Shown: positions 6,883 through 62,173 of the stretch, piece after piece
Layout of the letters: the number at the start of each line of letters is the position of its first letter
Position numbering within the stretch: position 1 is the stretch's first letter
Origin: a virus
IMG/VR virus record: IMGVR_UViG_3300020202_000062
Coordinates: 94,929-158,928 of that record
Direction: 5' to 3' (one strand)
Length of the DNA: 64,000 nt
Notes under the pieces: generated by a model
Database searches by the model: none
Told to the model about the DNA's origin: nothing
What the model saw: the letters and a program-made list of their open reading frames with translations, nothing else
Translations under genes and position numbers: made by a program

Positions 6883-9800
6883 CTCCTACCATGGAGATCT
6901 TCCAACTTATATCTTACACCAGCGGTGATGTTACGCTCAATAACGTTGATGATCTCCTGCTCCTTCGGGAACTGAGTCTTTAGTTCCTCTGGCAGACGGA
7001 TGATAACGAAACCACCCTTCTGATAGGAGACCCCTCCACCAAAACCGATATCCCAGTATCCAATTGACTCAGACACCATACGACGAATCTCTTCTAGGTT
7101 CAGAGAATCCTTTGCTCCACCACCACGGCGGCGAGTATCTAGAATCACCAGATCATTGATATCTAGAGCGGGTGCGATATATACCACACCCAACTGGACT
7201 GCCAACGGATCGTACTCTGGATCTAGAGGATCGAAGATATTAGTATCCATCCTAAAGCGCAAAGTCCTTGTGTTGACTGAGTCTGTTATCACACTTCCGT
7301 TTGAATCCTTCACAAAGGCTGGGACGATGTAGATGTAGACTGGGCGACCAACTAGGTTTCTTGTGTTGCCTGGGTTGGGGTTCAAGTTGAGGTAGCGCCC
7401 GTCGTATTGCTTAAAGTTGTAGACTGAACGCTTAGTCGTGTAATCAACCTTAACGAGATTAGCCTCATCTGACGCTAATGGGGAAGCCAAAGTGATCTCG
7501 CCGGTCGAAGCATTGTAGTCTGCAATGTCGGGCCAAGATAACTCGGTCCATGGAGATGATGCTGTCGACCTCGTGTATACCTTTAGGGCCGGACGAACTG
7601 GATCAGCATATGAAGAACTGACGTTGCTCGGTTCCTTAACCATCAGCAGCGGTGCCTGACGTAGTTGAATTGTAGTTTCGTCAATTACCACAGGATGTTC
7701 ACCCTTGATATCTACGTTTGGTCGACCGTGTAGAGTTGACCATCCACCCAACTCCGACTCTGGAATTGAGTAAAACGCACGTACATCTGAACCCTGATAT
7801 GAACCCAAGTATCCATCAAGTGGTCCTTGGTTGCGTGGGCGGATCTTTACCTTACGGTTGAAGCTACCAATGCGAACTGGCACAGGCCAAACGTCAGCGG
7901 CACCTAGGTTCTCTGGAAGCGGCTCAATCTGGATCTGTGCACCAGACTTAACCTTCACACCGTAAACAGGCATCGCCCAGCGGAATGGGATCTTGGGGGC
8001 ATCTGCCGAAACAGGTAGTGTGTTGGTTGTGTTCAGTTCGTAGTTTGAGATAACGCCGACATATACGTTTTCGGGTCCGCGGTCTAGATATTCCATGTAA
8101 GTCATTTCTGGAATACCTGAACTATTGACAATGAATTCCTTCTTGCGCTTGTCGTAGAATCCTACAAACACAGAAGCATCGTTTGTGGTAAGATCCACAC
8201 TTAGGCTCATGTAATGACGCTGAGTTTCATTTGTTCCTACCGATGTAGGCATGGCGGGGAATCCGGCTGGTTTACCGTCCGCATCGCACAGTAACTTGAT
8301 GCCATCAGTCTTCCTGATCCATCCTGATTCTGGTGCTATGCGACGATTTCCATTCTCGTCCATTGAGTACCATGTTTCACTTGAGCCTGGCTCATACTCG
8401 GGACCGAATGTGTATCGACTATTGACGTGATTAACCACGATATTGTTACGTAGTCTAATAAGACCACTTGAAGTTGCACCGACGATAGAAACCTTTGGGT
8501 TGTTTACTGTAATGTTTGTCCAGTTTACATCACTTAAGGTTCCCGAAGCGTAATCGTGAGGGTTAGCCTGTACCGTGGTGTCGTATCCACTACGCACAAC
8601 AACGTTACGTCCTGAGGCGTTGATTGGATAATTGTTGATGGTTACTTGCCTAACTACCTCACGGCGCTCTGTCTTCTTGCCCTTGCCGTAGATCAAGATA
8701 TCCTTGATACCCAGCATGCGCGAATCGCCCCAGCCCGACTTACCATTCTGACCAACACCAACAATAACAACGTTGCCTTCATATGGTCCTACGGGGAAGT
8801 ATGTACCGGGTCCATCTGGGATAGGTAAGCCTAGGCTTGTTACTCTAGCCTTGCCCATATCATAACCACCAAGATGGAATGGACCGGGAGCAGAATGGGT
8901 CTTAACGTCAATAGCGTGGAGAAGCATCTGCTTGCTGTTTCCCTCAAGGTAGGGGGTAATCTTTACTCCGTGGATCTTGTATCTGTCGTCAAGTTCTACA
9001 GAGAATACGTCCCAAATATTGCCTGGGCTATTCTTCAGATCTGATCTCTTGGCATAGTATGTCTGAGCATTCCAGTCAGAGATGTGCTTCTTCATAATGC
9101 GGCCCTTTGGCCAATCGTAAAACTTTGTGTAGTCCCTACTACTAGTCGGACCTACTAGGCTTCCCAGATTGATTACTTGATATCCGATAGCAGCCCAAGT
9201 CTCGGCGTCTACTACTCCATTGCGGAATCGTAAATGGCATTTAGTTTGGAACTGCTTGATGGCCTCTTCGGTTTTCTTACCATTGGAACTATTATCGTAG
9301 CGACCATTAACCTCTAGGTATTCGGTGTTCTTTAGGAACCCGAAGAACTTCAGTTTGTTCATCGTCATCTGGACGAACTTAACCCAATCTGAAATGTTCC
9401 CCGAGCCACCTTTCTCTAATCTTACGGTCGCTCCCCAAAATGGCCAACTCAAAAGACCACCTGCTAAGGTGCCCTTTTCATCGCCGTAATAGTTATCATC
9501 CTGCCAAGTACGAAGGTAGTTGGGATGCTTAGTGCCCTGATCGAACGCACGTCCAGAAGTAAAGGTGGTCTTGTTCTTGCCGTGAGAAGACCATGACATG
9601 ATGATTTCTGTATCATCATCGACAGTTACATTCTCGTATTCTGTAACCTCACGGGTTAACTTAGCAGTTCCAGAAGCAGTCCAGTCTACAGTCTCTTCTG
9701 TTGAATCTTGAGCAGTTGCGTTGTAGTTTACTCGCACCTGTACGCCATATGGTTTTGGTGGGTATTCGCGGTAAACGTATTGACCCTCTTCGAAATCGCC

Positions 9801-12050
9801 AGTTACTAACTCTTCCCTAATTACGTGAGGACCGAGGTCAATCGGTACTTCGAACTTTGGAGTGTATGCTATGGTCCAGGCGGCAGGAATAACGCTGTCA
9901 CCAAGATCCTCTGGAACTTCTACATTAGGGTTAGTTACCTCAATCTGATAGGTTCTTGTTGCTCCACGAACGCGCTCTAAATCAGCAGCAGAGATGCTAG
10001 AATCAATGATTTGCTTAAGTGTCTGCTCTGAAAGTATGCGCTGCCATACGTTTGTGGGAGTTGCTGATGCAGTTGTGAGAGATACGAACCTATTGGCGTC
10101 CTTCTCGCGCTGTGATAACGCCTCTCCATCAATAACCCATGAAGCCTTCCAAGGCGAAGAGAATGTCCATGAGGTTGAGTAGTCTGTCTCATCCCTTCCA
10201 TCTAAGGCGCGATCTTTGACGGCCAGAAGGCAGAGATTGTAGAAGAACTTGTACGCACCCTCTACGGTGCTTGAATTAACATAACGGTTGTAGTCTGCCC
10301 TTGAAACTTCGTGCCCAGCAGTATCGAATCGATTACGTGCAACACGCTTACCGGTTACATGAGAGAACAGCATGTTAACTGCCTCAAGTGAACCGATCGT
10401 AGAGAAGATCAAATGCCCACCATTTAAGGTTGGCTTGTGTAAGAGACACGGCTTGTACTGACCAGAGTTATTCTGGGCTTCCATAAGTACGATGTAGTCA
10501 CCTGGGTAATCTAAGATGTACTGGCAGTAGCCATCCCCGAATGTTCCATATCCACCGTTCTTATATGGTGATATTGAGTTGTATTCATCGTCTGAGCCGT
10601 CATTAAAGTTCCATCCACCGTACTCTTGATCTGCGTTCCACAAGAAGTACTCGTCATTCTTTGGTCGGATGGTACCTCCATCGATCCATCCATAGTCGCC
10701 TTCTTCGGAGATACGGCTAGCGTCAGCGGCATTAACGGCACATGTAGTCTCGATACCGAGTCCCTCTGGGACGGTGTGGTTGTGCATGTCAATGATAAGA
10801 GTCTTTCCTAGTTGTTCGGTGAAGTATCTGATCTTCTGCATGTACGGCTGGAAGTCGAATGAAAGCACCCTTGGGCACCACAGTAGTATGTCGAATTTCC
10901 TTAGGTCGCTGTAACTAATATCATCAAAGTCAACGGTCCAGTAATCTTCGTCTTCCTGGTCATCGACAGATGCAGTATCTTCCTCGTCGGTGTGTAGAGG
11001 ATTGATGAACTGAATCTCGGTGGCGTTGTAATCACTACGCATGAGATTGAGGAATGCGTAGGTGGCATCGCTGTGTCTATTTCCGTCGGTGATGATAACA
11101 CCGGCTTTGATGGCTGCGGCTTCCTTGGATGGATCTACTGTGTAGTTCTCTGTGAAGCTAGCCTTTACTCTCCATCTGAACAGTTGGAAGATGCGCGGAT
11201 CAGCCATAGCCTTCTTGGGCACAAAGATGCGATATCCTTCTACGTCCGGATGAGGCTCACCTAGGATCTGTTCCTTCAGGGTGGCTGGCTTTGTTGAGTA
11301 CCACTTCTTGTTGCGGTTGTTTAGATCTACTACGTCAGACTCTTCTGGCCTGTATGAGTAGTATGCCTGAGGATTTAGGATCTCTTTGTATGAGAGTTCC
11401 TGATTCTTCAACTTGCCGTCAGTGCCTACCTCGACCTTATTGTAGGTTAGGTACAGGTTCTCGTTGTCGTCTACATCCACAAAAGCCCAGACACGATAAG
11501 CGTCTGTAGTTTGGTCGGTATCTTCAACTGTGGTATTTGCTGGTGTTATGCGGATTTTGTATCGCGCCCTACCCTGCTCATCTACATAGTCACGCCCATC
11601 GGCGTCTACCACTTTGATGTCTTCAAGTTCGAAAGTCCTTAGTTCTGATCCTAAGGTCAACCCCTGAAAGTCTACATGGAAGTAACGGCTTACGTGGACG
11701 TAAGGCAAGATTGAGTCTGATGTGTACTCAGATCCTGGGGTGGATAAGAAGTCTTCATCTATTGTGAATACGTCAGCGACAGCAGGGAACTCGTCCTCCA
11801 CTATCTGATTACCGCTCTCGTCCTCTAGAATGCCCATTCGGTTGGCATACATGATTCGATACTGGTCTGCTACTGACACAGTGTTCTCTTCGACCACATT
11901 TGATGTGTCGACAATTACCACATTCTTAGATGGGGTCAGTGATGGCGATTGAATCCAGGCAAGATTGACAGCATCCTCGGGGACTCTTACGCCTCGCCTA
12001 AATGCCTTTTCATTACCTTCGGTACTTCTGTCTTCAAACGCCTTCATCAC
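6873..12050 (-). CDS. Large baseplate/tail-associated protein with internal peptidoglycan-binding domain
   Basis: 1725 aa; segment LEKGGSG..VKFVQMTM..NGRYD..TEEAIKQFQ..NGVVDAETWAAI (about 9190-9420) fits the PG_binding_1 pattern. Confidence 0.65.
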   Translation of the reverse strand: MMKAFEDRSTEGNEKAFRRGVRVPEDAVNLAWIQSPSLTPSKNVVIVDTSNVVEENTVSVADQYRIMYANRMGILEDESGNQIVEDEFPAVADVFTIDEDFLSTPGSEYTSDSILPYVHVSRYFHVDFQGLTLGSELRTFELEDIKVVDADGRDYVDEQGRARYKIRITPANTTVEDTDQTTDAYRVWAFVDVDDNENLYLTYNKVEVGTDGKLKNQELSYKEILNPQAYYSYRPEESDVVDLNNRNKKWYSTKPATLKEQILGEPHPDVEGYRIFVPKKAMADPRIFQLFRWRVKASFTENYTVDPSKEAAAIKAGVIITDGNRHSDATYAFLNLMRSDYNATEIQFINPLHTDEEDTASVDDQEDEDYWTVDFDDISYSDLRKFDILLWCPRVLSFDFQPYMQKIRYFTEQLGKTLIIDMHNHTVPEGLGIETTCAVNAADASRISEEGDYGWIDGGTIRPKNDEYFLWNADQEYGGWNFNDGSDDEYNSISPYKNGGYGTFGDGYCQYILDYPGDYIVLMEAQNNSGQYKPCLLHKPTLNGGHLIFSTIGSLEAVNMLFSHVTGKRVARNRFDTAGHEVSRADYNRYVNSSTVEGAYKFFYNLCLLAVKDRALDGRDETDYSTSWTFSSPWKASWVIDGEALSQREKDANRFVSLTTASATPTNVWQRILSEQTLKQIIDSSISAADLERVRGATRTYQIEVTNPNVEVPEDLGDSVIPAAWTIAYTPKFEVPIDLGPHVIREELVTGDFEEGQYVYREYPPKPYGVQVRVNYNATAQDSTEETVDWTASGTAKLTREVTEYENVTVDDDTEIIMSWSSHGKNKTTFTSGRAFDQGTKHPNYLRTWQDDNYYGDEKGTLAGGLLSWPFWGATVRLEKGGSGNISDWVKFVQMTMNKLKFFGFLKNTEYLEVNGRYDNSSNGKKTEEAIKQFQTKCHLRFRNGVVDAETWAAIGYQVINLGSLVGPTSSRDYTKFYDWPKGRIMKKHISDWNAQTYYAKRSDLKNSPGNIWDVFSVELDDRYKIHGVKITPYLEGNSKQMLLHAIDVKTHSAPGPFHLGGYDMGKARVTSLGLPIPDGPGTYFPVGPYEGNVVIVGVGQNGKSGWGDSRMLGIKDILIYGKGKKTERREVVRQVTINNYPINASGRNVVVRSGYDTTVQANPHDYASGTLSDVNWTNITVNNPKVSIVGATSSGLIRLRNNIVVNHVNSRYTFGPEYEPGSSETWYSMDENGNRRIAPESGWIRKTDGIKLLCDADGKPAGFPAMPTSVGTNETQRHYMSLSVDLTTNDASVFVGFYDKRKKEFIVNSSGIPEMTYMEYLDRGPENVYVGVISNYELNTTNTLPVSADAPKIPFRWAMPVYGVKVKSGAQIQIEPLPENLGAADVWPVPVRIGSFNRKVKIRPRNQGPLDGYLGSYQGSDVRAFYSIPESELGGWSTLHGRPNVDIKGEHPVVIDETTIQLRQAPLLMVKEPSNVSSSYADPVRPALKVYTRSTASSPWTELSWPDIADYNASTGEITLASPLASDEANLVKVDYTTKRSVYNFKQYDGRYLNLNPNPGNTRNLVGRPVYIYIVPAFVKDSNGSVITDSVNTRTLRFRMDTNIFDPLDPEYDPLAVQLGVVYIAPALDINDLVILDTRRRGGGAKDSLNLEEIRRMVSESIGYWDIGFGGGVSYQKGGFVIIRLPEELKTQFPKEQEIINVIERNITAGVRYKLEDLHGRSWT

Positions 12051-15000
12051 TAAACATCCCTGTAGTCCGGGTGCATCGACTGCAAACCATCTAACGTAAC
12101 ATCATAAAACCCTGAACCTAAGAAGCCCAACTGGTACTGGTCGTATCGCGGAATTGCGTACCAAGCCGGTGGCTCCCATTCTATAGTAACAGGTGTCGCT
12201 GCGCTATTAGGAGTTGCTTCGTCATAATAAACAGGATATCCGTTTATATCAGAGTAATATGGGTTAGTGTCTGCTGCGTTTGCCATCTGGACTAGAGGAA
12301 CCGACAGATTGGTGAAGCCCTCTGAGCCGTATTGGAGATCAGGTGTCTCCAGCCAGAATACAACGTCACCAACCATGTCGTATTGAGGGGTTGCCGATGC
12401 AGAGACTCTGTCTGTTTCGACCATGACAAACCAGTAACCTGGATCCCATGGCGTTGCAGCCGTGAAGGGACCCACGGTGAATCGTCCCAATGAATCTGCG
12501 GTGACCGACCCATCGTATGGTAGGTCTGTGTTTAGTACTGTGTAGATATCCCTACCCTTACGGTAGTTAACCTTGGCCGAGGCTACTGGTAGCCGAGATG
12601 AATTCTCAACCTTACCGAATACCCTAACCTTGGTCAATCCATCGGCAGGGATGGTGTCTACTTCGGGTAGGGCAGTCAACCTATAAGATGGGGTGGCTGA
12701 CTGTTCAATGTCGAAGTTGAATGAGGCAGATACGTCACCGGTGATGGTCACTGTTCCTGTCATACTCGCAGTAGAACCGCCAGCGGTCAGGAATACAACT
12801 GCGCTACCGTTATCGTCTGTCAATACAACGAAGTTGGAACTTGATCCATTTCCGCTTGGGATAGCGAATCCGTCCGCATCCGTGACAGGGATATCGAACT
12901 CTCCCCATGAGGTGCTCATGTTGAAGGTTTGGTTTGGCTTAGGATTGCCATACTCATCAACCGAACGAATAGTGATAAGCATATAATCCTGGCCGTCTGC
13001 CAGAAGTTTAGATGGGCTGTACCTTACTTCGATTCCTGCTAACGAGTACTCTTCAAACGAGATGAAGAGGAACCCTTCTTCCACTGTCGTATAGAATGTG
13101 TTTAGCGGCACGTCGATTGGTGTAGCCTCATCGTATACTGAGTCCTCATAGGTTACAGTATACCCACTTGCACCGAAGTCTACAGGCAACTTATCGAAGA
13201 CCAACTTAGTTCTTTGGCTGCCGTCAGTATGGATGTAATCGTTGTATGCGTAGAATGAACGGTTGAGTTTGTATGTTACTTCGTAGATCTTGTCGCGATC
13301 GGTTACACCTACAGTACTGATTTCGTTTGTAAATGTCTCAGTGTCGGCCTCAACAGGTAGACCGGTCTCTAGATCTGTCACGGAAACCTCATACAGATCT
13401 TCGTAACCCAGGAACAGTTTGTTGGTGCCCGACCCGTAAACATTCTGCTTACCACGGAGAGTTAGTCCTGGCGTTGCAGTGTCATAGAATGCTACCTGAC
13501 GCATCAACTGTGGACTGGCTTCGTCGGTATACACAATAATGGGAGCACCCTGGCGAGCGACTGACTCAAGCACTGGTGTGGCTGAAGTGACTGTCTCGTC
13601 CTTGCGATTGGCATATAGGTAGTATTCGCTCTCTCGGTCATAGAACCACCCAGAGTGAACCTGTGGATGCCATGCCGGGTGAATGCCTGGGCGTAGGCGT
13701 GCTCGGATTGCTATAGGAGAGTATGCATACACTTCCGAATCGTCATCCCACTCCTCCTCGATAGCATCATCGGGGTAAGTAACTGATGTTCCATCATCAA
13801 AAGCGGGCTTAACTGTGTTGCTATCCATCCATACAATAACGTTGTCGTTATCTAAGACTTCTGCGCCCATCCAGGTTACAACGAAGTTCTCGGTATTGGG
13901 AATGTTGAAGTCATCCCTATTGAGGATAAGGCTAGTCAAGTAGAAGTTCGTGTTGCCAATAGGGGCAGGCACTCCGTTTCTCCATGGACCGTTCTCGTCT
14001 ACGTATCCCTCTACTTCTGTGGTTTGTGTTGCCTCGAAGATATTCCACTGACCACTCGCCACTGGGTAATCTGTAGCACCAGAGCCTATAGAGAATTCTA
14101 GGGTTGTAACAGCCGTTGAGAACTGCCTGACTCCCGCCCCATCCCAGTTGGCACTGCCATTGACTAGTAGATATTCCTTCGAAATGAAGGTTGAGTTAAA
14201 GTCGGGGTCAACAACATATGCTCCGTGTGTGCCGTCATCGTCCTGAGTAATGATTTCAACTTCATACTTCTTATTTGGAGTTGCTTCCAGATATGGGTTC
14301 CATGAAATTTCCGGAATGGTGATTGTCATACTCTGCTGAGTAAGATCAGGCACTGCTCCATTCATGAGGATGTTGAACATCTGCTTCTCTGACTTCCATC
14401 TACCAATAGTGTAGGAAGTTGTTAGCGGTTCAAATACAACACTAGGGGTTCCTGAACCACCGTAGGTTAGTGCAGTCTGAGCATTGTTTGCTGTCAACTT
14501 CGACGCAGAGTTATCTGACCACCATGCTCTGGCATTGCCAGTTGTGGGGAAGTCTGCAAATGCTTGGATATCTGGATTGAATCTACCGAAGTAAAGAGCA
14601 ACAGAGTCCACATCGTTAATATGAATAGAAAATGGTGTAGCGGCTGAAGTATCGTATTCGTTACCTGACGCATCGTACCAAATCTGCTCATCGTCCAGGT
14701 GTCCGTCTTCTGCCCAGATCCTGTAGGTTGCGTAGCAGTTGGCTGTATTTGTGGGGTTGGCTGCGTCTACGTTGCTCTTGCTTGAGAGTTGGAAACTGTG
14801 GTAGTAGACAGATGGTGTCGCTGCTGAGTCGGTGATTCGGACCGTCAGCCAGTCTTCCACTGTCGGATTGTCGTATACTTTACGGTCAGCAGATCCGTAG
14901 ATGTAAACGTCTGCTGCAACCTTTGGATATAAGTTGACTGAGTCGCGCTGTCTACCTCGGGCCTTTAGCCTAACAGTAAACTGCTGCGTGCCACCTGGTG

Positions 15001-16444
15001 CGTCTGGTCGGATAACCAATAGGTCGTCACCATCACCAACACCAGTCTGAATGTATTCTTCCGGAACTGGCGTAGCATCTAGCCTATATGGCAGGACTGC
15101 ATATCCCTCGTTCTCTAGGCCACCAACATCCCAGAACGATTGCTGCCACTTGAAGTATCCCCAGGTCGTTGGGTACTTTTCGGCAAGTTGTTCAACCAAT
15201 GAATAGAATCTTGGGTTTGGCACATTGTCATATCCCATATACGGGGTTGCGCCGTCTACATCGTCTTCGATGTCAGACATCTCTAAAACGTACGGTGTAG
15301 CCCCTGCATAGTTTGAGTCAGGAGTTGCGCCGAACGCCTGCCACAGATTGAGTTCTCGACGTAGAGCCAACTTGAATGCTTCGACGCCAACACCTGGCCT
15401 ATTGATATGCACGTCGAGAATACGGATCTTGTACGTTTCATTATCTTCTAGGAGGTGGCGGTCAAGGTCTACCATTAGACCAAAGTCATCGAACCAGTTC
15501 CATACATGATGGGGATTCTGATTGTAGATTTCTTCGTTGAGTTCTAGATTCTCATACGACTTGCGAGTGTAGACAACCCTCTTGAGTTCATCCCAGAAGA
15601 ATACATCTTCATCTTCTCCTGCGGCATAAAACTCTTCTAGGCTGGCTGTGCGAGCCAACTGAACGTCATCGCCAACAATGCTCCACAGAACCTCGGGAGC
15701 GTCAGCCGCAGCGTACACCCAGGCAACCTGAGTTACATCTGCCGTATCAATATAACGCTGTAGGTCCAAGTAGTTAAGACCGTAATCTAGATCATCTAGC
15801 CACTGACCGGCTACTGCATTGACTAACTGTGCGCCTACGCTAAGTGGGGTAGCAGACTCGGAGTCTAGATCGCGAGTCTCCATCCATTCTGGGAATGTAT
15901 CCAGAACGGTTCTGGTTCGGTCGTAGAGTGGTGCCATGACTGGAGTGTCAATCTCAATACGAATCAGAACCTCTACGCCAATATCAGCGGTGTCTAGTGT
16001 GGTGTTTAACCTCAATACAAACCTAGCGTATCTGTAAGAATCAATGATGAAGATAGGATTATTGGCATAGTTGTTAGTCTGGCTTGCCCACTCATCTGGA
16101 TACTCTAAGTCGGGATCGTCAATGGTGTAGATATCAAGTATGGGAGTGATATCACCTGTTCCGGGGAGATTTGTAAACTCCACCTGATACGACATGATGT
16201 CGATGCGGCCACTGTAATCAATGTAGCGGCCAGAAGAGATAATTCCGGAGTCTGTTACGTTTGCAGATATTTGATTGATACCCGTCCAGGTGCGATCACC
16301 CAGAGAGTTTAGACCATAGTTTGACTTGGTAGTCGAGTAGTTCTTGTAAACATCATTATTATACAGGTCTATAACCTCAGAAGACCAGACCGCACCGGCC
16401 TGGTCAAAATCATCCTGAGTTAGACGTAAGTAGTAAACCTTCAC
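12050..16444 (-). CDS. Large baseplate wedge-type protein with C-terminal Ig-like (Big_1-type) domains and 16 Ala-Thr-Pro motifs
   Basis: 1464 aa; FDDFGLMVDLDR..EDNETYKIRI resembles a wedge/tail-I motif; LLADGQD..VDEYGNP..TDDNGSA and IPADG..TADSLGRF resemble Big_1 repeats; GTG start with GGGAG. Confidence 0.65.
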   Translation of the reverse strand: MKVYYLRLTQDDFDQAGAVWSSEVIDLYNNDVYKNYSTTKSNYGLNSLGDRTWTGINQISANVTDSGIISSGRYIDYSGRIDIMSYQVEFTNLPGTGDITPILDIYTIDDPDLEYPDEWASQTNNYANNPIFIIDSYRYARFVLRLNTTLDTADIGVEVLIRIEIDTPVMAPLYDRTRTVLDTFPEWMETRDLDSESATPLSVGAQLVNAVAGQWLDDLDYGLNYLDLQRYIDTADVTQVAWVYAAADAPEVLWSIVGDDVQLARTASLEEFYAAGEDEDVFFWDELKRVVYTRKSYENLELNEEIYNQNPHHVWNWFDDFGLMVDLDRHLLEDNETYKIRILDVHINRPGVGVEAFKLALRRELNLWQAFGATPDSNYAGATPYVLEMSDIEDDVDGATPYMGYDNVPNPRFYSLVEQLAEKYPTTWGYFKWQQSFWDVGGLENEGYAVLPYRLDATPVPEEYIQTGVGDGDDLLVIRPDAPGGTQQFTVRLKARGRQRDSVNLYPKVAADVYIYGSADRKVYDNPTVEDWLTVRITDSAATPSVYYHSFQLSSKSNVDAANPTNTANCYATYRIWAEDGHLDDEQIWYDASGNEYDTSAATPFSIHINDVDSVALYFGRFNPDIQAFADFPTTGNARAWWSDNSASKLTANNAQTALTYGGSGTPSVVFEPLTTSYTIGRWKSEKQMFNILMNGAVPDLTQQSMTITIPEISWNPYLEATPNKKYEVEIITQDDDGTHGAYVVDPDFNSTFISKEYLLVNGSANWDGAGVRQFSTAVTTLEFSIGSGATDYPVASGQWNIFEATQTTEVEGYVDENGPWRNGVPAPIGNTNFYLTSLILNRDDFNIPNTENFVVTWMGAEVLDNDNVIVWMDSNTVKPAFDDGTSVTYPDDAIEEEWDDDSEVYAYSPIAIRARLRPGIHPAWHPQVHSGWFYDRESEYYLYANRKDETVTSATPVLESVARQGAPIIVYTDEASPQLMRQVAFYDTATPGLTLRGKQNVYGSGTNKLFLGYEDLYEVSVTDLETGLPVEADTETFTNEISTVGVTDRDKIYEVTYKLNRSFYAYNDYIHTDGSQRTKLVFDKLPVDFGASGYTVTYEDSVYDEATPIDVPLNTFYTTVEEGFLFISFEEYSLAGIEVRYSPSKLLADGQDYMLITIRSVDEYGNPKPNQTFNMSTSWGEFDIPVTDADGFAIPSGNGSSSNFVVLTDDNGSAVVFLTAGGSTASMTGTVTITGDVSASFNFDIEQSATPSYRLTALPEVDTIPADGLTKVRVFGKVENSSRLPVASAKVNYRKGRDIYTVLNTDLPYDGSVTADSLGRFTVGPFTAATPWDPGYWFVMVETDRVSASATPQYDMVGDVVFWLETPDLQYGSEGFTNLSVPLVQMANAADTNPYYSDINGYPVYYDEATPNSAATPVTIEWEPPAWYAIPRYDQYQLGFLGSGFYDVTLDGLQSMHPDYRDV

Positions 16445-16462
16445 TTGTAAACTCCCTAGGGC

Positions 16463-17368: not shown

Positions 17369-17379
17369 ATCGACTCCTC

Positions 17380-18525
17380 TTATTGTGTTACTGCTACTTC
17401 AATTCGCCCAGCAACAACTAGTTCGTCTTCGTTAGGCTTGTAGTTCTTCCGCAACGTCTCTGTGCCGTTTTTGGCGAATGTAGTAATATGTAAGTCACTG
17501 ATCAGGTCTGAACTCTCTAGAACGATCTGAACAAGTCTATTATACACCAAAGTCTGGCCGGGTAGTAAAGAATTCAGATAACGAATTACCGCAATCCTTG
17601 CCCTACCTGCCACTACGTCAGCCTGCGCTGACGTTAGACTCGGTGTAATTAGTGATATCGTAATGTCAAATGGGACCAACTCTGGATCTTTGACAAACAT
17701 TGTAACACCGACAGGACGTACCGTTTCAAGTGCCGATAGAACTTCTCTTCTAACACGAGCCTGGAAGGTAGTATCTTCTGCGGTTAGGATTACCTCGAAG
17801 GACCCCAGGCCGTAAGGTGCTGTACGGATTCGGATATCTCTAACACCGTTGATGCTCAATGCTTTGAATCGAATAGCCTCCACAGTTCCAGATGCTGCGA
17901 CCCTTACTGACTTGATGATTCTGGCCCTATACGTAGCATCGTCTTCTGAACTGGCTTGCTGCTGAATAGACTTGGGATTGGTGCACTTAACTGATGCTCC
18001 TGCTGGAGACATAAAATTATGCACAGTTAGGGATCCTGCACCGGCCGTATGTACTGAATCATTGAAGGCTGGGCGGATACTACCAAATGCTCGCGTCCTA
18101 CCGGCAGGTATAACAACCTGCTCTGTCAAGACGTAAGTGAACTGAGCACCTACAAATCCATCGATGCTTGAGTAGACCCTGGTACCAGCAGGGATGGTGA
18201 TATCTGTATGATAGGGTGAATCTAGATAGAAGTAGAAACTACCACTTCTCTTGTCGATTGCGGTAAGTTCTGAAACCGTCTTACGCTGGACGTTATACAG
18301 GGAGCCAATAAGGTCTAAGGCTCGACCTGTAGCAGTAGACACAACGGACTGTGCCAAGTTGTAGTCAAGAGCGTCGTAGGCATCACCGATCTCATTGACA
18401 ATGGCTTCGGTAAACGCCCTGGCGACGGAGCCTGGTCCGATGGCCGTAATCGGTGTTTCATCTTGCAACTTCTGCAAAGCCTGCCTAAGGATGTCTGACT
18501 TCTTCTTCTTCACATATAGCGCCAT
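17380..18525 (-). CDS. Baseplate J-like wedge protein
   Basis: GSVARAF..STATGRALDLIG..ITIPAGT..EDDATYRARI..GTVEAIR..RPVGV; follows a gp25-like gene. Confidence 0.9.
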   Translation of the reverse strand: MALYVKKKKSDILRQALQKLQDETPITAIGPGSVARAFTEAIVNEIGDAYDALDYNLAQSVVSTATGRALDLIGSLYNVQRKTVSELTAIDKRSGSFYFYLDSPYHTDITIPAGTRVYSSIDGFVGAQFTYVLTEQVVIPAGRTRAFGSIRPAFNDSVHTAGAGSLTVHNFMSPAGASVKCTNPKSIQQQASSEDDATYRARIIKSVRVAASGTVEAIRFKALSINGVRDIRIRTAPYGLGSFEVILTAEDTTFQARVRREVLSALETVRPVGVTMFVKDPELVPFDITISLITPSLTSAQADVVAGRARIAVIRYLNSLLPGQTLVYNRLVQIVLESSDLISDLHITTFAKNGTETLRKNYKPNEDELVVAGRIEVAVTQ

Positions 18526-18908
18526 TATACTACCTCTAATTCCTGTTCGATAGATAGAAGCAGTGTATTCTGGCTGGGCGACCCTACGTATAGATCGAAC
18601 CTAATGGTCTGCGGACCTGTAGGTACGGCGTTGATCGTGATTTGCTTACCGTTGAATCTACCCTCCCTGTTAAGGGCGGCGCGGATCAGGGCTTTGCCGA
18701 ACTCTGCTGTTTCTCTAGTCTGAGGCTCTCCATACAGTTTACTTAACTCTGTACCGAGGCTTGGGTATAGCGTCCAATCTCCTGGCTCTGTCATAAGACG
18801 AATATAGGCCTGCTGTGCATCGTCTCTCCAGTTGGTGCCCGTCAAAGCCAGATCACCATTAGGAGATAGTTTGATGTCACCTGATTGCGAAAAATAAAAA
18901 TCTGCCAT
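18525..18908 (-). CDS. Baseplate wedge / sheath-initiator protein (gp25/gpW-like)
   Basis: 127 aa; GDLAL..QQAYIRLMTEPGDWTLYPSLGTEL; immediately upstream of the J-like gene. Confidence 0.8.
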   Translation of the reverse strand: MADFYFSQSGDIKLSPNGDLALTGTNWRDDAQQAYIRLMTEPGDWTLYPSLGTELSKLYGEPQTRETAEFGKALIRAALNREGRFNGKQITINAVPTGPQTIRFDLYVGSPSQNTLLLSIEQELEVV

Positions 18909-18927
18909 ACTCAGCCCCTGTTCATAA

Positions 18928-18935
18928 TACTAGTA
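18928..18935 (-). promoter_or_regulatory. Putative late promoter element TACTAGTA
   Basis: In the 33-nt gap, 27 nt upstream of the gp25-like gene. Confidence 0.5.
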
Positions 18936-18941
18936 GCGGAC

Positions 18942-44777: not shown

Positions 44778-45452
44778 TTAATACCAGGATGGAGTTGCCG
44801 AGTACGTGTCGGTCAGATTGGCTACAATCGGCGTAGCACCGTCGTCTGGGGGAGCCATTCCTAAAGTCTGGCCATTTAGATATAGGCGCAGATCAATAAT
44901 GATCTCTGTAAGCCTTCCTTGTGGGATCAGGCGGATCTTCTCTTCCGTCATCTGATAGGCCACAGTCCTAGTCAAAAAGTCCTGTCCATGATCTTTTACA
45001 TCGTTGTCGGGCATTCGTCTTGAGTAGAAGAACTCGGATACACCCATCTCCTTGAAGATTGGAGTGCTCTCAAGCATGAAATTCTCGAATGCCTCTATAG
45101 CCATGTCTGCACGGAAGGGGTCGTCTCTGTCAATGATGGTGAAGGTTACGATATTGACGAACCTCTGGGCTTCTACCCTGTAGGCATTTCCGTCTATAAT
45201 GACTTCTTCTCTAATTCTAGGCTTTGGCTCACTAGCGTGAGACTTCCTAACCTCTAACTTGTGAACGATGGCTGTATTGAATAGCGAATCGTTCACCACA
45301 TCACTTGTAAAGATTGGTGAGTTTGCGTGGTACATCGGAACATCAGGATGACCCTGGTCCCATAGGTAGCGAACCATCTCAAGAAACTCGATATAGGTGA
45401 TATTGGCTTTCGCCTTTGATCTGGGCTGCGGATATCCGCTCTCTCTAATCAT
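44778..45452 (-). CDS. Tail terminator/completion-like protein
   Basis: 224 aa; position immediately before the sheath gene; two ATP motifs near the C-terminus. Confidence 0.55.
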   Translation of the reverse strand: MIRESGYPQPRSKAKANITYIEFLEMVRYLWDQGHPDVPMYHANSPIFTSDVVNDSLFNTAIVHKLEVRKSHASEPKPRIREEVIIDGNAYRVEAQRFVNIVTFTIIDRDDPFRADMAIEAFENFMLESTPIFKEMGVSEFFYSRRMPDNDVKDHGQDFLTRTVAYQMTEEKIRLIPQGRLTEIIIDLRLYLNGQTLGMAPPDDGATPIVANLTDTYSATPSWY

Positions 45453-53883: not shown

Positions 53884-54639
53884 TTAAAGAATTAGGTTTG
53901 CGCGGATTGCGCCGACAGCCAAGTCAACATCGAGGTTGGCGCGGATGCCTAGCTTTCCACTGTACGGACCAGTCTTGGTCAACTCGTATACATGCTTTAG
54001 TGCGCCTGGGTCAGCAGGAAGCTGCATGTATGAAAGTAGACCATCGTCGTAGTTGGTTGCGAAGTACTCGACCTCGATAACCTTGGCTACGTTTAGGTGT
54101 GCATCAGTTCCAGGGGCTGCTGCGCGAACTGGACGGCCCATGTGATCAGCGCGAAGGATGTCTCCAACCTTAACACCGTCGTTTAGGCCCTGAACCATTG
54201 GCCACTCTACGTAACCGTGGGTGATCCAGCCTGCGCCCTGTGAGGTACCCTTATCGAACATGCGATACAGGTCGTACTGAGCGCAACCAATTGGTGTTGA
54301 CTTAGCAGGAACGATAACTACATCCTCATCGCCAGTGACGTTGGTTGGAGTAGCGCCTGAATCGTAGTCAACTAGATCTGCATCGCCCCATACCTGGTTT
54401 GATGAAGTTCCGTTAGCAGGAACCAAACGAGTGTCATCAGTTGAAATCTGGATGGCACTTAGGATGGTACCCTTAGTCATTACGACCTCGAAACGATCGT
54501 CGTAATCTGAGTGATTCGTGTAAAGAGTTGGAAGACCCTCGTGTGGGTGCGCCCAAACTGCGGGAGCGATACCCTCTGAAACCACGAAACGGCCTGAACC
54601 CTGCTTGCCGAATACCTTGCGGAATGTTGCCTTTGACAT
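53884..54639 (-). CDS. Capsid decoration / minor capsid protein
   Basis: 251 aa between protease-scaffold and capsid genes; AGGAG RBS. Confidence 0.65.
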   Translation of the reverse strand: MSKATFRKVFGKQGSGRFVVSEGIAPAVWAHPHEGLPTLYTNHSDYDDRFEVVMTKGTILSAIQISTDDTRLVPANGTSSNQVWGDADLVDYDSGATPTNVTGDEDVVIVPAKSTPIGCAQYDLYRMFDKGTSQGAGWITHGYVEWPMVQGLNDGVKVGDILRADHMGRPVRAAAPGTDAHLNVAKVIEVEYFATNYDDGLLSYMQLPADPGALKHVYELTKTGPYSGKLGIRANLDVDLAVGAIRANLIL

Positions 54640-56384: not shown

Positions 56385-57149
56385 CTAGGCGCGCGGATCG
56401 CCCTCGCGCTTATACTCATTCAGCATCCACTTATGCATGATGTGTGGAGTGTAGAGATTTGTAGCACAGTAGAGTTTGAATCCATGCCTAGTGCATTCGG
56501 CTGACCATCCCAAGTCTTCACCCTTAGGGTGCCATTCATACCTGACAGATTTGAAGACCTGTGGTGTCATCATTTTGGATGCCATGATGATATCTGCCTG
56601 AATGACAGATCCAATGTCATATCCATTTGGGTCACGGCGGGCGTTTCCTCCGACTTCGTTAACCCAACTCATAATACTAGGAAACGCAGTGCCCCTTGGG
56701 GTCATATATGCCAGGGTAGACACTGCGTCTCTAGTGTGCGTTAATTCAACTAAAGTAGATATAGTGTTAGGATCCCGAAGTAGTATGTCTGAATCTAAGG
56801 AAAAGTAGCGATCAGGATTGATGCAGTTTACTCTCTCCAGAAGGGAGTTTCGGAAGTTGACCATTTTATGGTACTTGGCCCAATTCCAGATTCTCTTATC
56901 TTCTGGGTGGTGGTCGTGCTTTTCGCCGCCGTCTTCTCTTACATCAAAGCAGAATACTTCTGGATGTTTTGCGTGCCATTCAAATAGTGCGTTATGTGTA
57001 GCCTTATCGTTTGGCCCTAATTCAAAGATAAATCCTAAATCAGAAAGGTCATAGTTCTGGTTCTCGATTGCGGCAAACCAATCGGGCAATATCCACTCCC
57101 TCTTATACACCGGACAACCTATTAGAACCTTAACCATGACCTTCCCCAT
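56385..57149 (-). CDS. GT-A fold (family 2-like) glycosyltransferase
   Basis: VLIGCPV..; RNSLL; DxD motif FSLDSDILL; GEDLGWS; PHIM. Confidence 0.8.
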   Translation of the reverse strand: MGKVMVKVLIGCPVYKREWILPDWFAAIENQNYDLSDLGFIFELGPNDKATHNALFEWHAKHPEVFCFDVREDGGEKHDHHPEDKRIWNWAKYHKMVNFRNSLLERVNCINPDRYFSLDSDILLRDPNTISTLVELTHTRDAVSTLAYMTPRGTAFPSIMSWVNEVGGNARRDPNGYDIGSVIQADIIMASKMMTPQVFKSVRYEWHPKGEDLGWSAECTRHGFKLYCATNLYTPHIMHKWMLNEYKREGDPRA

Positions 57150-59851: not shown

Positions 59852-62173
59852 CTACTCGCCTTGAAGTGCTGCAACCTGCTCCTGGAGTTCTTGAACAGCT
59901 TTAACTAGCAAAGTAACTATAATATTATAAGCTATTCCTTCGGGCTGGCCTTGATTATCTAGAGATACAGATTCTGGAATTGCATCAAACATCTCTTCGG
60001 CAATGAATCCGATATCTTCTCTTTGCTGCGAGATCCATCTAAAACGAGTAGGATTGAGTTCGGCTATCTTACTTAGCGCACTGTATTCAATGGGGCGTAG
60101 GTCTTCCTTCCACCTGATAGATGATCCGTTTGTGTAAGTCCCGCCGATAAGATTGGCGTAGTCACCTGTATCGTAATTAATGAACTGAACTCGGTTATCA
60201 TCCGAAGAACCCTCATCGATAATAATCAAGGTATTAGTTTCTGTGCCATCCGAATCGGCCTGTAGGGCTATTCCTGCAATTTGTCCAGTGCCCCTCGCTT
60301 GCACCGGTAGGTTAGTGGGGCTAGCGTTTCCGGTGCTGATGCTTCCTGTAGAAGCGATCAGTTCGTCACATGTAACATCGCCACTAGCCGTAATTGTCCC
60401 GATGTTGACAAGGTTCCTAGAACTATCAACGATCTGAGTACCGTTAAGTTGATATTGGGAAGTGGCGTTAACTGTCGAAGGAGAGAATGTTCCTGTGGTT
60501 AGGGTGCCCGGAATGTCAACTGTGCCACCTGCACTAATGGTCAACCTATTCGATCCGGCGACTTCCATGAAGATATCCGAGTCCGCCTGGATATACATAT
60601 CTCCACCAGTAGTGGTGTAGATGGTTCCCTCAGTATCAGAACCCGCAAGATCGTACCACTTGATCTTGTTGCTGTTTCCGGTTCCTACGATAAGTTTGAT
60701 GCCAGTGCTAGCATCAATGACGACAGTACCTGCTGAGGCGGTCAGTGTTCCGGACACTGTAAACGAACCCGTGATGTTAGCGTCAGTGGCCGTCAAAGCT
60801 CCAGCAGGTGTGACCTGAAAAACAGTCCCTGATCCAGTGTTGATCTGTCCTGCGGCCGAAACCCTAAATGCAGTTGCTGTTGCATATGTGGATGTTGCAG
60901 GGTTACCCTGCCAGATGTTGCCGCTGTTATCTACGTTGAATCCACCAGAGGAACCAAGGCCAATAACACCCCTTCTGAAGTAAGCGAGTCCATCCGCCGT
61001 CAAGTAGAATGAATCTGTCGAGGCTCCGTCCCACAGCCTGAGGTACTTATTGGCACCTGTGGCGCTTGGGTCGATTTCAAACCTATGAGTTCCACCCGAT
61101 GTTGGGGACTGAAACTTCACTGCGCCCGCAGAAGTTACATACATCGTTGCGTTTGATGTAGACGTTCCGTTCAGGAAGATACCATTACCATCAACATAAA
61201 AGCGTGTGTTGCTTGAGTATGCGATTTGGAACTTGTTCGAGTCCAATGTGATAGCACTTGTGCCTCCCACATTATGCCCCACAATACTGATAGCCCCATT
61301 TTGGAATGTAATTCCATCTTTACTTAGCCGGTAACCTTTTGGTGTCCCGCTAGGAGTGTATCCAAAACTCTGAATGAAACCATTAGTATCGATGATGAAA
61401 GTTTTGGCGGCCCATGTACCCTCAAGGAGGTTGTCTACGGATACCTCTGTTTCAAGCGTCGTACCACTAGCGACTGGGGAGTAACCAGTTGACAACTGAT
61501 CAAACTGATCCCTTACCTTAAAACGGTAATAGTGAGTATCGGTGTCTGAAAGTTCATGGAAGTAAGTATCGGTTCCAGCGAGATCAGCAAGCGTTGACCA
61601 AGAACTCCCATCTAAAGAATGCTCAAGAAGGAATCCCTTATAGTCAAGCAGTCCGTCTGGTGGTATCATCGTGATACTGATACCAGTAAATACACCCACG
61701 AGAATAGGAGCATCTGTTGGATCTGTTGGGTCTTCGTTGCTGTCAGATCCAACCAAAGCCGCTGACTCATTACCGTGAATATCAACAGCCTTTACGGTAA
61801 CCGAAATAGAACTCTGGAGAGAACCAAAGTCAGAAGTGTTTTGATCTCTACTGTATAGGAAGTATGCGTCTGTTACTTCGTAAACTTTCGTAATGGAGTT
61901 GGCCGTAAGGGTAACCTTATATCCCTTTAGGTCCATAAGCGTACTGCCGTCAGTATTTGTGGTTGGCGGCGTCCAAGTTACGATGAAGGCTGTGGCTGAG
62001 AAATTCGTAACAAGGTTGGTTGGTGCGCTAGGAGTACTTTCATCAGACATTGTCTCGAAAGTTAGAGATTCAGACCATTCTGACTGAACGCCTAGATTGT
62101 TGTTAGATCGAACTCGCACCACATAGCGAGAGTCGGGCAATAGATTAGGTAGAACTCTGATCACTTCGGCCAT
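59852..62173 (-). CDS. Tail fibre / receptor-binding protein with FN3 domains and C-terminal intramolecular chaperone (peptidase S74)
   Basis: FN3 motifs (LLPDSRYVVRVRS; PSAPTNL..VTWTPP); SSIRWKEDL..IGFIAEEM..LLVKAVQEL at the C-terminus. Confidence 0.85.
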   Translation of the reverse strand: MAEVIRVLPNLLPDSRYVVRVRSNNNLGVQSEWSESLTFETMSDESTPSAPTNLVTNFSATAFIVTWTPPTTNTDGSTLMDLKGYKVTLTANSITKVYEVTDAYFLYSRDQNTSDFGSLQSSISVTVKAVDIHGNESAALVGSDSNEDPTDPTDAPILVGVFTGISITMIPPDGLLDYKGFLLEHSLDGSSWSTLADLAGTDTYFHELSDTDTHYYRFKVRDQFDQLSTGYSPVASGTTLETEVSVDNLLEGTWAAKTFIIDTNGFIQSFGYTPSGTPKGYRLSKDGITFQNGAISIVGHNVGGTSAITLDSNKFQIAYSSNTRFYVDGNGIFLNGTSTSNATMYVTSAGAVKFQSPTSGGTHRFEIDPSATGANKYLRLWDGASTDSFYLTADGLAYFRRGVIGLGSSGGFNVDNSGNIWQGNPATSTYATATAFRVSAAGQINTGSGTVFQVTPAGALTATDANITGSFTVSGTLTASAGTVVIDASTGIKLIVGTGNSNKIKWYDLAGSDTEGTIYTTTGGDMYIQADSDIFMEVAGSNRLTISAGGTVDIPGTLTTGTFSPSTVNATSQYQLNGTQIVDSSRNLVNIGTITASGDVTCDELIASTGSISTGNASPTNLPVQARGTGQIAGIALQADSDGTETNTLIIIDEGSSDDNRVQFINYDTGDYANLIGGTYTNGSSIRWKEDLRPIEYSALSKIAELNPTRFRWISQQREDIGFIAEEMFDAIPESVSLDNQGQPEGIAYNIIVTLLVKAVQELQEQVAALQGE

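Follow-up and report, generated by a model that had tools for sequence, protein, structure and literature searches.

Short sequons read by glycosylating enzymes include N-x-S/T and, in Bacteroidota, D-(S/T)-(A/I/L/V/M/T), and the GT-A-fold polypeptide GalNAc-transferases show a preference for Thr-Pro. Virus-encoded glycosyltransferases act on Vp54, the capsid protein of the chlorovirus PBCV-1, which is N-glycosylated at atypical sequons in an algal host. For the glycosylation of mycobacteriophage virions no discrete sequon has, to our knowledge, been described. The O-glycosylation of these virions by phage-encoded glycosyltransferases is said to have been set out by Freeman et al. in Cell Host Microbe in 2023. 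A further article (PMC12619734) reports mycobacteriophage glycans at the C-termini of capsid and tail-tube subunits; the 'Moraphage' of that article was considered as the lineage studied here and was ruled out, being a separate T4-like lineage. A literature search on Ala-Thr-Pro and glycosylation found no paper describing the tag that we analyse below.

The window, that is, the whole stretch of viral DNA analysed here, is 64,000 nucleotides long and comes from a phage with a GC content of 47%. A sequence-only reading of it had noted 16 Ala-Thr-Pro (ATP) tripeptides in a 1464-aa protein, where fewer than one was estimated from composition. Our count also gave exactly 16, in the contexts listed in that reading (residues 198, 373, 382, 399, 457, 542, 602, 721, 955, 990, 1107, 1250, 1330, 1351, 1410 and 1416), against an expectation of 0.52 from composition (Poisson p = 8.6e-19). 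The maximum reached in 20,000 shuffles of the protein was 5, and ATP is its sole outlier tripeptide, the runner-up having a p of ~6e-4. In 16 of the 19 AT dipeptides the next residue is P, and in 16 of the 20 TP dipeptides the residue before is A. The sequence-only reading had quoted four codon coordinates to illustrate codon variety; these are correct, and over the 16 sites every Ala codon and every Thr codon (four each) occurs, as do three of the Pro codons. Since synonymous codons vary in this way, selection acts on the protein and not on the DNA. A DNA-level repeat or a restriction/methylation site was ruled out by the codon variety and by the frame-specificity of the motif, and an internal protein repeat by the unrelated flanks of the ATP sites.

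Table 1. Features discussed in the text; coordinates are those of the window except where G000 is named.
Feature	Coordinates	Strand	Remarks
1464-aa outer baseplate 'arm' protein	12050..16444	(-)	16 Ala-Thr-Pro tags
ATP codon triplets, arm protein, sites 1-8	15845-53, 15320-28, 15293-301, 15242-50, 15068-76, 14813-21, 14633-41, 14276-84	(-)	
ATP codon triplets, arm protein, sites 9-16	13574-82, 13469-77, 13118-26, 12689-97, 12449-57, 12386-94, 12209-17, 12191-99	(-)	
Baseplate_J (gp6/gpJ-like) wedge protein	17380..18525	(-)	PF04865 E 2e-18; phrog_6 E 1.5e-42
224-aa virion protein between two sheath paralogues	44778..45452	(-)	phrog_20284; two ATP in C-terminal tail
ATP codons of 224-aa protein	44829-44837 and 44790-44798	(-)	
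251-aa head protein directly upstream of major capsid gene	53884..54639	(-)	decoration-like, by position only
GATP of 251-aa head protein, ATP codons	54346-54354	(-)	within most variable loop
254-aa GT-A-fold glycosyltransferase, between portal and protease-scaffold genes	56385..57149	(-)	DSD (DxD-type) motif
773-aa fibre-like protein	59852..62173	(-)	0 ATP; N-terminus homologous to G001 ATP-rich fibre
268-aa GT2	G000 81076-81882		13-16 kb past low end of window, with its pair
229-aa GT2_4	G000 78996-79685		paired with 268-aa GT2, past low end of window

The neighbouring Baseplate_J gene, from which the gene for the 1464-aa protein (the arm protein) is separated by an exonuclease gene, places the latter in the baseplate module. 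CHAP and PG_binding_1 domains are also found in this module. The N-terminal part of the arm protein consists of a beta-sandwich (aa 1-165) and a wedge-type alpha/beta domain (aa 175-430), and aa 177-369 match phrog_21059, a 'virion structural protein' (E 3e-26). In tblastn searches the arm protein recovered ORF162 of the Bacillus jumbo phage 0305phi8-36 and Bacillus jumbo-phage proteins that lie beside 'baseplate J/gp47' (E 1e-13). The low-copy virion protein ORF162 shares homology with the arm protein over aa 177-457 of the latter and likewise adjoins Baseplate_J; it differs in being 372 aa long, without the Ig-like arm and with 0 ATP and 0 STP. Judged by homology and position, the predicted arm protein is a baseplate wedge protein adjacent to gpJ, of the phrog_21059/ORF162-like type.

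Beta-sandwiches of Ig-, MG- and Fn3-like type follow one another from aa 500 to aa 1464 of the arm protein. AF2 models of the protein have pLDDT values of 85 and 86. With the C-terminal half, Foldseek retrieved InvE, intimin and MG-domain chains (E 1e-8 to 1e-6), and the N-terminal half gave nothing significant; in these models, the fold resemblance of the C-terminal half to the Ig-like InvE and intimin is clear. Matches to Big_1 and Invasin_D3 at aa 1139-1235 stay under the Pfam cut-offs (for Big_1, PF02369, 32.1 bits vs a gathering cut-off of 34.9), and PF02369 is present in the precomputed Pfam annotation of most homologues. The tag had been expected in loops and this is where the predicted models, scored by secondary structure only, put it: 15 of the 16 ATP sites are DSSP coil, mostly at local dips in pLDDT, and the site at 1107 falls in a short strand. 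Many of the sites lie 1-4 residues ahead of a beta-strand.

The tag extends across the arm-protein family. ATP-rich homologues make up 70 of 72 in the database set and 80 of 80 in IMG/VR, and a scan of GTDB contigs yielded one family member, which is ATP-positive. When 137 distinct homologues were pooled, 1744 ATP were seen vs 57.9 expected (30-fold); over the same sequences STP was 6.7-fold and ASP 3.4-fold over expectation, and the remaining xTP, AxP and ATx variants were all below 3.5-fold, most being close to 1. The flanks of the sites are weakly biased. The 958 sites are spread over 154 alignment columns and imply, by parsimony, 439 or more gains or losses, with the Jaccard overlap of tag sites going down to 0.13 at 20-29% identity; despite this turnover the density of tags stays at 8.6 +/- 2.1 per 1000 aa, and in lineage-specific insertions it is equal or higher. 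A few tag positions are near-invariant (383 in 67/71, 1108 in 52/72 and 374 in 50/71 sequences). Because of these positions, and because several tags abut strands, the signal may in part reflect structure.

Two members of the family, the sisters P0043 and P0046, have lost the tag as a block. They are nested within tagged clades and have 1 ATP each, on a scaffold that is retained (the window protein is matched at 40% identity and 98-100% coverage); at the most conserved site, GATPE has become GAYPE. A substitute motif was sought in this clade and none was found, and searches that used P0043 or the P0043/P0046 alignment as query had an ATP-positive fragment as their sole match. In its distribution over these sequences, the arm-family tag combines strong over-representation with a sharp [A>S]-T-P core, variable flanks, turnover at constant density and block loss in a subclade, as an enzyme-read sequon or a short linear motif would; this is the sequon-like behaviour that the sequence-only reading had proposed. 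For a trans-acting reader, a tripeptide enriched 30-fold, kept in ~150 diverged proteins and lost en bloc makes an unusually clean signature.

How far does the tag reach beyond the arm protein? A virion-wide tag had been suggested. By count this does not hold in the window genome, where essentially a single protein holds the excess: the rest of the window has 9 ATP vs ~4.4 expected and the rest of the 159-kb contig 16 vs ~10, and of the 805 ORFs that neighbour the gene in 80 related loci, only frameshifted pieces of the arm family are ATP-enriched. The individual occurrences that had been listed for other proteins were mostly found again (two in the 224-aa protein, and one each in both sheath paralogues and in the 251-, 264-, 543- and 1725-aa proteins), as was the lack of ATP in the 2177-, 1174- and 2792-aa proteins. 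The exception is the protein called 'DUF2341-like': we saw no DUF2341 match, and a 1058-aa ORF of the window has 0 ATP. What did stand of the virion-wide proposal is a set of conserved sites in a few other virion proteins.

Two [A/S]TP occur in the C-terminal tail of 21 of 22 orthologues of the 224-aa protein, which are 30-45% identical; A and S swap at the same tag site, and the final tag lies 2-11 residues (usually 2) from the C-terminus, except in the G001 orthologue. The GATP of the 251-aa head protein recurs in 16/16 and 80/80 orthologues (60-70% identity), whose flanks and loop length vary, and in distant relatives (30-55% identity) the loop or the site is missing. Relative G001 has a second ATP-rich protein, a 1618-aa Fn3 fibre with 11 ATP and 2 STP (p 1.5e-9), and over aa 3-143 of this fibre the N-terminus of the 773-aa protein of the window is 33% identical to it.

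The sequence-only reading had named one glycosyltransferase (GT) as a possible modifying enzyme. This ORF, the 254-aa head GT of Table 1, is indeed a GT, with a GT-A fold, a precomputed PF13704 annotation and a DxD-type motif, and it is a core gene of the lineage. PF13704 (Glyco_tranf_2_4) is precomputed for the head GT and for most of the homologues listed. Its Atlas structure aligns with a viral 'GT25 N-terminal / Glyco_tranf_2_4' cluster at a TM of 0.92 and with eukaryotic GT25 enzymes at 0.82-0.84, and an LDSDIL motif is visible. An hmmscan of the protein against Pfam gave no match at E 0.01, and phmmer against the PDB gave a weak match to COLGALT1 (E 0.4). All five records (5/5) with a completeness of 90% or more have the gene, as do 15/23 of the full set, and wherever a head-module locus offers space for it, it is there (46/46). 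The 268-aa GT2 and the 229-aa GT2_4 are each present in 22/23 records. These three GTs are core to the phage lineage, and the head GT is therefore one of three conserved candidates, predicted from sequence, for the reader of the tag. Beside the GT2 pair, the window phage carries four accessory GTs and two FkbM-type methyltransferases. Genes for GT47-like, GT4, GT1-like and 200-aa GT2 enzymes were ruled out as tag readers, being absent from 23/23 tagged relatives.

Pairing contigs across the homologue lists by their length, we found the head GT and a tagged protein on the same contig in at least nine contigs of at least 147 kb; for three more distant long contigs, the head GT was not among the matches listed. 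None of the isolates in the phage collection has the head GT or the 251-aa protein; the lineage is uncultured. In three distant head modules the portal gene directly abuts the protease-scaffold gene, leaving no GT slot, and there is no GATP loop. Likewise, the head GT query gave no match in Bacillus phage 0305phi8-36 when run against the phage collection. Outgroups without the GT slot are thus also without the tag. Every record examined has both and the outgroups have neither, so that the co-occurrence of tag and GT, as read from these sequences, amounts to one evolutionary gain.

We consider that [Ala>Ser]-Thr-Pro has about an even chance (roughly 0.5) of being an O-glycosylation sequon on Thr that is read by a phage-encoded GT. 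The tag would then be a short linear signal recognised by something beyond the fold of the protein that carries it, displayed in flexible loops of the arm's chain of Ig-like domains, often just ahead of beta-strands. The reader would most likely be a phage-encoded GT that adds a sugar to the Thr hydroxyl, and the three core GTs may carry out a conserved priming and core step, with accessory GTs and methyltransferases extending the glycan in a strain-specific manner. The gene content of the window phage, core GTs together with accessory GTs and FkbM-type methyltransferases, fits such a division of labour. The particle would thereby be covered with sugar on its outermost parts, those that face the host. 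We infer from these patterns the modification of Thr, the sugar as its nature, the identity of the reading GT and the role of the coat; the core GTs could instead serve DNA, the host envelope or other targets.

Turnover at constant density, block loss and spread over unrelated virion proteins fit any trans-acting reader, and hence also a partner (a fibre, a decoration protein, an assembly chaperone or a Thr-Pro peptidyl-prolyl isomerase) that binds the ATP loops non-covalently and modifies nothing. The final tag of the 224-aa protein, so near the C-terminus, even looks like a docking peptide. However, three residues with nearly free flanks offer a tiny binding surface, and motifs so short are typically enzyme-read. 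We identified no conserved partner or PPIase and saw nothing else notable among the 805 neighbouring ORFs, whereas the three conserved GTs constitute a ready enzymatic reader, and we regard a docking or chaperone code as unlikely. A reader could also be dispensed with if A-T-P were a favoured loop or beta-strand N-cap in a beta-sandwich chain, kept by fold stability. The many sites just before strands, the strand placement of site 1107 and the near-invariant positions 383, 1108 and 374 all speak for this, but other proteins rich in beta-sandwiches make no use of the motif (the 1725-aa neighbour has its single ATP, and 0 of the 805 ORFs are enriched) and sites turn over freely while density holds. 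Moreover, the P0043/P0046 subclade drops the motif and keeps the fold, unrelated proteins have kept the tripeptide, in tails that are disordered and in loops that vary, and the distant 0305phi8-36 homologue has none. A purely structural reading is accordingly disfavoured, and we hold it to be improbable.

Other enzymes that would agree with the strict preference for Thr over Ser and with the need for a Pro include proline-directed kinases, prolyl hydroxylases and isomerases. Indeed, a Pro at +1 combined with Thr over Ser (ATP 30-fold vs ASP 3.4-fold) is classic for proline-directed enzymes, and the covalent change might be Thr phosphorylation, Pro hydroxylation or an ester-linked ubiquitin-like protein. 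A prolyl hydroxylase was rejected as the reader because the contig yielded no 2OG-Fe(II) oxygenase domain; ubiquitin-like tags normally attach to Lys, and given three core GTs and a variable glyco-cluster a sugar is the simpler assumption, so that we see another covalent modification as decidedly unlikely. The enzyme might, on the other hand, be the host's, for instance a general O-glycosylation system, with the tag-less clade representing a host switch. A change of host could have left one clade without the tag en bloc, and a thick-walled host is suggested by the CHAP and PG_binding_1 domains of the baseplate module. Known general O-glycosylation systems of hosts, however, act on exported proteins and phage particles assemble in the cytoplasm; in addition, the phage lineage is deep and diverse and what is constant across it is the phage GTs, not a single host. 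A host enzyme as the reader strikes us as very improbable.

Taken as a whole, the O-glycosylation reading would mean that an uncultured jumbo-phage lineage runs its own cytoplasmic O-glycosylation, with an [A/S]-T-P sequon, a priming core of three GTs and strain-specific extension, giving a variable glycan coat on baseplate arms, fibres and some head and tail surfaces; for this full picture we put the odds slightly below even. If true, no sequon for a phage-encoded protein glycosyltransferase would have been defined earlier, and phage biology would gain its first simple sequence-readable code for virion glycosylation. The sugar-coated surfaces of uncultured phages would become predictable from genomes alone, and the enzyme and tripeptide would form a compact system for site-directed protein glycosylation. 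A coat on the host-recognition apparatus could shield it from proteases or host defences, alter adsorption or alter particle stability.

Compared with the systems described at the outset, the putative [A/S]-T-P code resembles the short sequons in having two or three residues, free flanks, a predicted placement in loops that would be exposed, and de novo origin and turnover, and it resembles the target preference of the GalNAc-transferases in the GT-A fold of the candidate reader, in Thr over Ser and in a nearby Pro. It is none of the sequons listed there; in particular the Bacteroidota motif does not describe it, as Ala, less often Ser, precedes the Thr and Pro comes after, and the enzymes here are small, soluble phage GT2/GT-A proteins that are presumably cytoplasmic. 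With PBCV-1 it would share virus-encoded machinery that works without host pathways of the ER/Golgi type and non-canonical short sequons on a structural protein, here predicted; PBCV-1 glycosylation is N-linked and on the capsid of a eukaryotic algal virus, whereas the predicted linkage here is O-linked and on the baseplate and fibres of a bacteriophage. The likeness to mycobacteriophages, on our side predicted from sequence, lies in dedicated GTs, in exposed targets on structural proteins that include a C-terminal tail (in the 224-aa protein here) and in a surface coat. Unlike in mycobacteriophages, a strict three-residue tag recurs here across the loops of the baseplate arm and fibres, in an unrelated host and phage lineage.

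The 1464-aa baseplate protein contains exactly 16 Ala-Thr-Pro (ATP) tripeptides, against 0.52 expected from its composition (Poisson p = 8.6e-19). The sequence-only reading had given this count, the residue contexts of the sites and an expectation of under one, and all three agree with our values. The maximum in 20,000 shuffles of the protein was 5, and ATP is the sole outlier among all its tripeptides: P follows 16 of the 19 AT dipeptides, and A precedes 16 of the 20 TP dipeptides. All four codons of Ala, all four of Thr and three of Pro occur at the sites, so the signal lies on the protein and not on the DNA, as had been argued from their codon diversity.

The commonest tripeptide is ATP or its variant Ser-Thr-Pro (STP) in 70 of 72 database homologues (27-48% identity), ATP ranking top in 68 of the 70 with 7-21 copies per protein; the IMG/VR homologues are ATP-rich without exception (80/80). 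When 137 distinct sequences were pooled, ATP was enriched 30-fold (1744 observed vs 57.9 expected), STP 6.7-fold and Ala-Ser-Pro 3.4-fold, and the remaining xTP, AxP and ATx tripeptides all lay below 3.5-fold, most of them near 1. Flanking bias is mild (G/S/D at -1, D/E at -2, Y/F at -3, E/N/S after Pro). The motif is accordingly [A>S]-[T>>S]-P, its surroundings being almost unconstrained. In the 72-sequence alignment, the ATP sites number 958 and are spread over 154 columns; 64 columns are singletons and a few are nearly fixed (query residues 383 in 67/71, 1108 in 52/72 and 374 in 50/71). Parsimony on the family tree requires at least 439 gains or losses, some of which will be alignment noise, and the Jaccard index of site sharing between protein pairs is down to 0.13 where their identity is 20-29%. 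Tag density is 8.6 ± 2.1 per 1000 residues over the family (range 4.6-12.5), with 9.3 per 1000 in lineage-specific insertions and 40 per 1000 in loops of intermediate occupancy. With positions turning over at constant density, selection acts to maintain tag number and not just individual sites. The sole family member found in GTDB genomes (locus L248, 5162-8000 of the 17-kb contig CAYOVR010000017.1; 8 ATP in 946 aa) lies on a contig assigned to a Candidatus Saccharibacteria MAG; this is probably a phage contig placed in the wrong bin and gives a weak host hint at best.

The IMG/VR record (158,928 bp, estimated by CheckV to be 75% complete) has its structural half in the window, where GC is about 47% and the long ORFs are all on the minus strand. 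The tagged gene belongs to the baseplate module. Residues 177-369 of its product match phrog_21059 and also resemble a small wedge-type protein beside Baseplate_J in Bacillus jumbo phages, e.g. 0305phi8-36 ORF162. In two AlphaFold models (mean pLDDT 85 and 86), an N-terminal beta-sandwich is followed by an alpha/beta wedge domain; the beta-sandwiches strung together from roughly residue 500 onward are similar to the Ig-like domain chains of invasin, intimin and macroglobulin type (Foldseek, E 1e-8). In our reading the protein forms an outer arm of the baseplate, in which a long Ig-like stalk is fused to a wedge anchor. The motifs had been expected in loops. In the models, 15 of the 16 sites are DSSP coil, many in hairpin loops or one to four residues ahead of a strand, and most coincide with local pLDDT dips; the exception is site 1107, in a three-residue strand. 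In the same module, the exonuclease is a replication-type gene at an odd site and may be a mobile insertion. The CHAP and PG_binding_1 domains hint, as wall-degrading equipment, at a thick-walled (Gram-positive-type) host, and the distal F5/8 type C (discoidin, sugar-binding) protein is likely a receptor-binding module.

Tagged proteins, neighbouring genes and glycosyltransferase (GT) genes; positions are in the window unless marked G000 (the full record contig)
Feature	Position	Strand	Remarks
580-aa distal tail protein	2653-4395	-	F5/8 type C domain, aa 273-385 (PF00754, E 2e-8)
1725-aa protein	6873-12050	-	PG_binding_1 domain; translationally coupled; follows the 1464-aa gene in the baseplate module
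1464-aa tagged protein	12050-16444	-	Baseplate module
Inserted exonuclease, 301 aa	16463-17368	-	Between Baseplate_J and the 1464-aa gene; RNase_H-fold 3'-5' exonuclease (PF13482, E 6e-15), C-terminal zinc ribbon; phrog_403 'DNA polymerase exonuclease subunit' (E 1e-86)
Baseplate_J	17380-18525	-	Baseplate module; PF04865, E 2e-18
gp25-like protein	18525-18908	-	Baseplate module; weak match, below Pfam cut-off
CHAP-domain protein	18942-19820	-	Baseplate module
CHAP-domain protein	20194-21105	-	Baseplate module
220-aa ORF	42695-43357	-	Just after the sheath paralogues; phrog_9206 'major head protein' (E 3e-52)
Tail-sheath paralogue, 430 aa	43376-44668	-	Flanks the 224-aa gene
224-aa virion protein	44778-45452	-	Between the sheath paralogues; twin C-terminal tags
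Tail-sheath paralogue, 497 aa	45452-46945	-	Flanks the 224-aa gene
251-aa head protein	53884-54639	-	Beside the major capsid gene; one GATP
Head GT-A, 254 aa	56385-57149	-	Candidate tag reader
101-aa ORF	57428-57733	-	Two genes upstream of head GT-A, an 85-aa ORF in between
773-aa ORF	59852-62173		0 ATP
Accessory part of glyco-cluster	G000 73247-78996		200-aa GT2 through 376-aa GT4; 16-22 kb past the low end of the window, next to two core GT2 genes

An enrichment throughout the virion, as the sequence-only reading proposed, is not borne out by counts: the other 36 window ORFs together hold 9 ATP vs about 4.4 expected, the contig outside the 1464-aa protein holds 16 vs about 10, and none of 805 ORFs (≥100 aa) flanking 80 related loci is enriched save frameshifted pieces of the family. 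The proposal stands in part by conservation. In a complete 231-kb relative (G001) a second protein is ATP-rich: tail-fibre-like, Fn3-containing and 1618 aa long, it has 11 ATP and 2 STP (p 1.5e-9), and its N-terminus is homologous to the untagged 773-aa ORF. A 590-aa neighbour of this protein has 3 ATP. The C-terminal tail of the 224-aa protein has two [A/S]TP in 21 of 22 orthologues (30-45% identity), A and S interchanging at the same site and the last tag lying usually 2 residues (range 2-11) from the C-terminus. The most variable loop of the 251-aa protein has at its centre an invariant GATP (16/16 and 80/80 orthologues). With G001, 8 further ATP sites of the window genome are alignable; 3 of these are conserved (29-56% identity). 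That one tripeptide recurs in unrelated folds within the same particles points to a common reader.

Some neighbouring observations concern these modules. In another relative, G003, the orthologue of the 224-aa protein (locus L110, G003 15596-19003) is without the twin-ATP tail and its gene may be frameshifted (two separate matches), although the baseplate protein of that phage has 17 ATP and the GTs are present. Duplication of the sheath gene is unusual, and the 220-aa ORF occupies the expected place of the tail tube, its 'major head protein' label being probably misleading. The 101-aa ORF contains DPTPEPEPTPEPEPTPAP, three Thr-Pro within a Pro/Glu-rich linker, which could be another acceptor or merely linker.

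The ORF suggested as modifying enzyme is indeed a GT-A-fold glycosyltransferase: precomputed Pfam places PF13704 on it and on most homologues among the matches listed, its Atlas structure has a TM of 0.92 to a viral 'GT25 N-terminal / Glyco_tranf_2_4' cluster and of 0.82-0.84 to eukaryotic GT25 enzymes, and a DSD motif is visible, although hmmscan gave no match at E 0.01. A PDB phmmer search reached only COLGALT1, at E 0.4. The gene belongs to the core set of the lineage: it occurs in all records that are at least 90% complete (5/5), in all head-module loci whose upstream sequence is long enough (46/46) and in 15 of 23 records overall; of the 8 without it, 7 are roughly half-genome fragments and 1 is 81% complete. 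It shares a contig with the tagged protein in at least nine contigs of at least 147 kb (contigs matched by length); three more distant long contigs do not figure among the matches listed.

More GTs lie in a glyco-cluster 13-22 kb past the low end of the window, in the order 268-aa GT2, DNA N6/N4 methylase, 229-aa GT2_4, 200-aa GT2, 315-aa Glyco_trans_1_2, two FkbM-type methyltransferases, 568-aa GT47/RXYLT1-like and 376-aa GT4. The two GTs on either side of the methylase are core (22/23 records each, 45-62% identity); the four accessory GTs (200, 315, 568 and 376 aa) occur in none of 23 relatives; at the syntenic position the relatives have GT2 genes of their own, in sets of 2-4. The lineage thus combines a conserved three-GT core with a strain-specific extension, as glycan-synthesis loci usually do.

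The GATP loop is missing from distant relatives of the 251-aa protein (30-55% identity). In three distant head modules (L231, L232 and L233) the portal directly adjoins the protease-scaffold, the slot is without a GT and the ORFs have 0-1 ATP each. ORF162 of 0305phi8-36 has neither ATP nor STP, and a phage-collection search with head GT-A returned only a distant archaeal-virus GT. These controls are consistent with the hypothesis, yet jointly represent a single evolutionary transition.

Two homologues of the 1464-aa protein, P0043 and P0046, have a single ATP apiece. They form a sister pair (support 100) deep within tagged clades and share 40-41% identity with the window protein and 48% with one another, at 98-100% coverage. 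Columns that hold ATP in other family members show unrelated residues in the pair, and the best-conserved site reads GAYPE in both instead of GATPE. A replacement motif enriched in the pair was looked for and none was found. Near-total loss of the sites with the scaffold kept would be expected after the disappearance of a trans-acting reader and is difficult to square with a purely structural loop motif, which we consider improbable. We favor a short tag read in trans (probability roughly 0.8). That the tag is an O-glycosylation sequon, the conserved phage GTs putting a sugar on its Thr, would have about an even chance. A non-covalent docking or chaperone code is an unlikely form of reading, another modification of Thr or Pro slightly more so, and a host-encoded reader is the least probable of all; these weights are rough, were set independently and overlap, and do not sum to one. 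As a pattern in the sequence the tag is well supported; its chemistry is unproven.

We found no cultured phage with these genes and, in the literature searched, no strict tripeptide code in baseplate-arm or fibre loops tied to a three-GT core. Phage-encoded virion glycosylation itself is already known: in mycobacteriophages it is reported on capsid and tail-tube subunits, at their C-termini (as cited in PMC12619734). In the window lineage, by contrast, the tripeptide is scattered in baseplate-arm and fibre loops and the glycan is a proposal; the new element would be the strict tripeptide code together with the conserved three-GT core.
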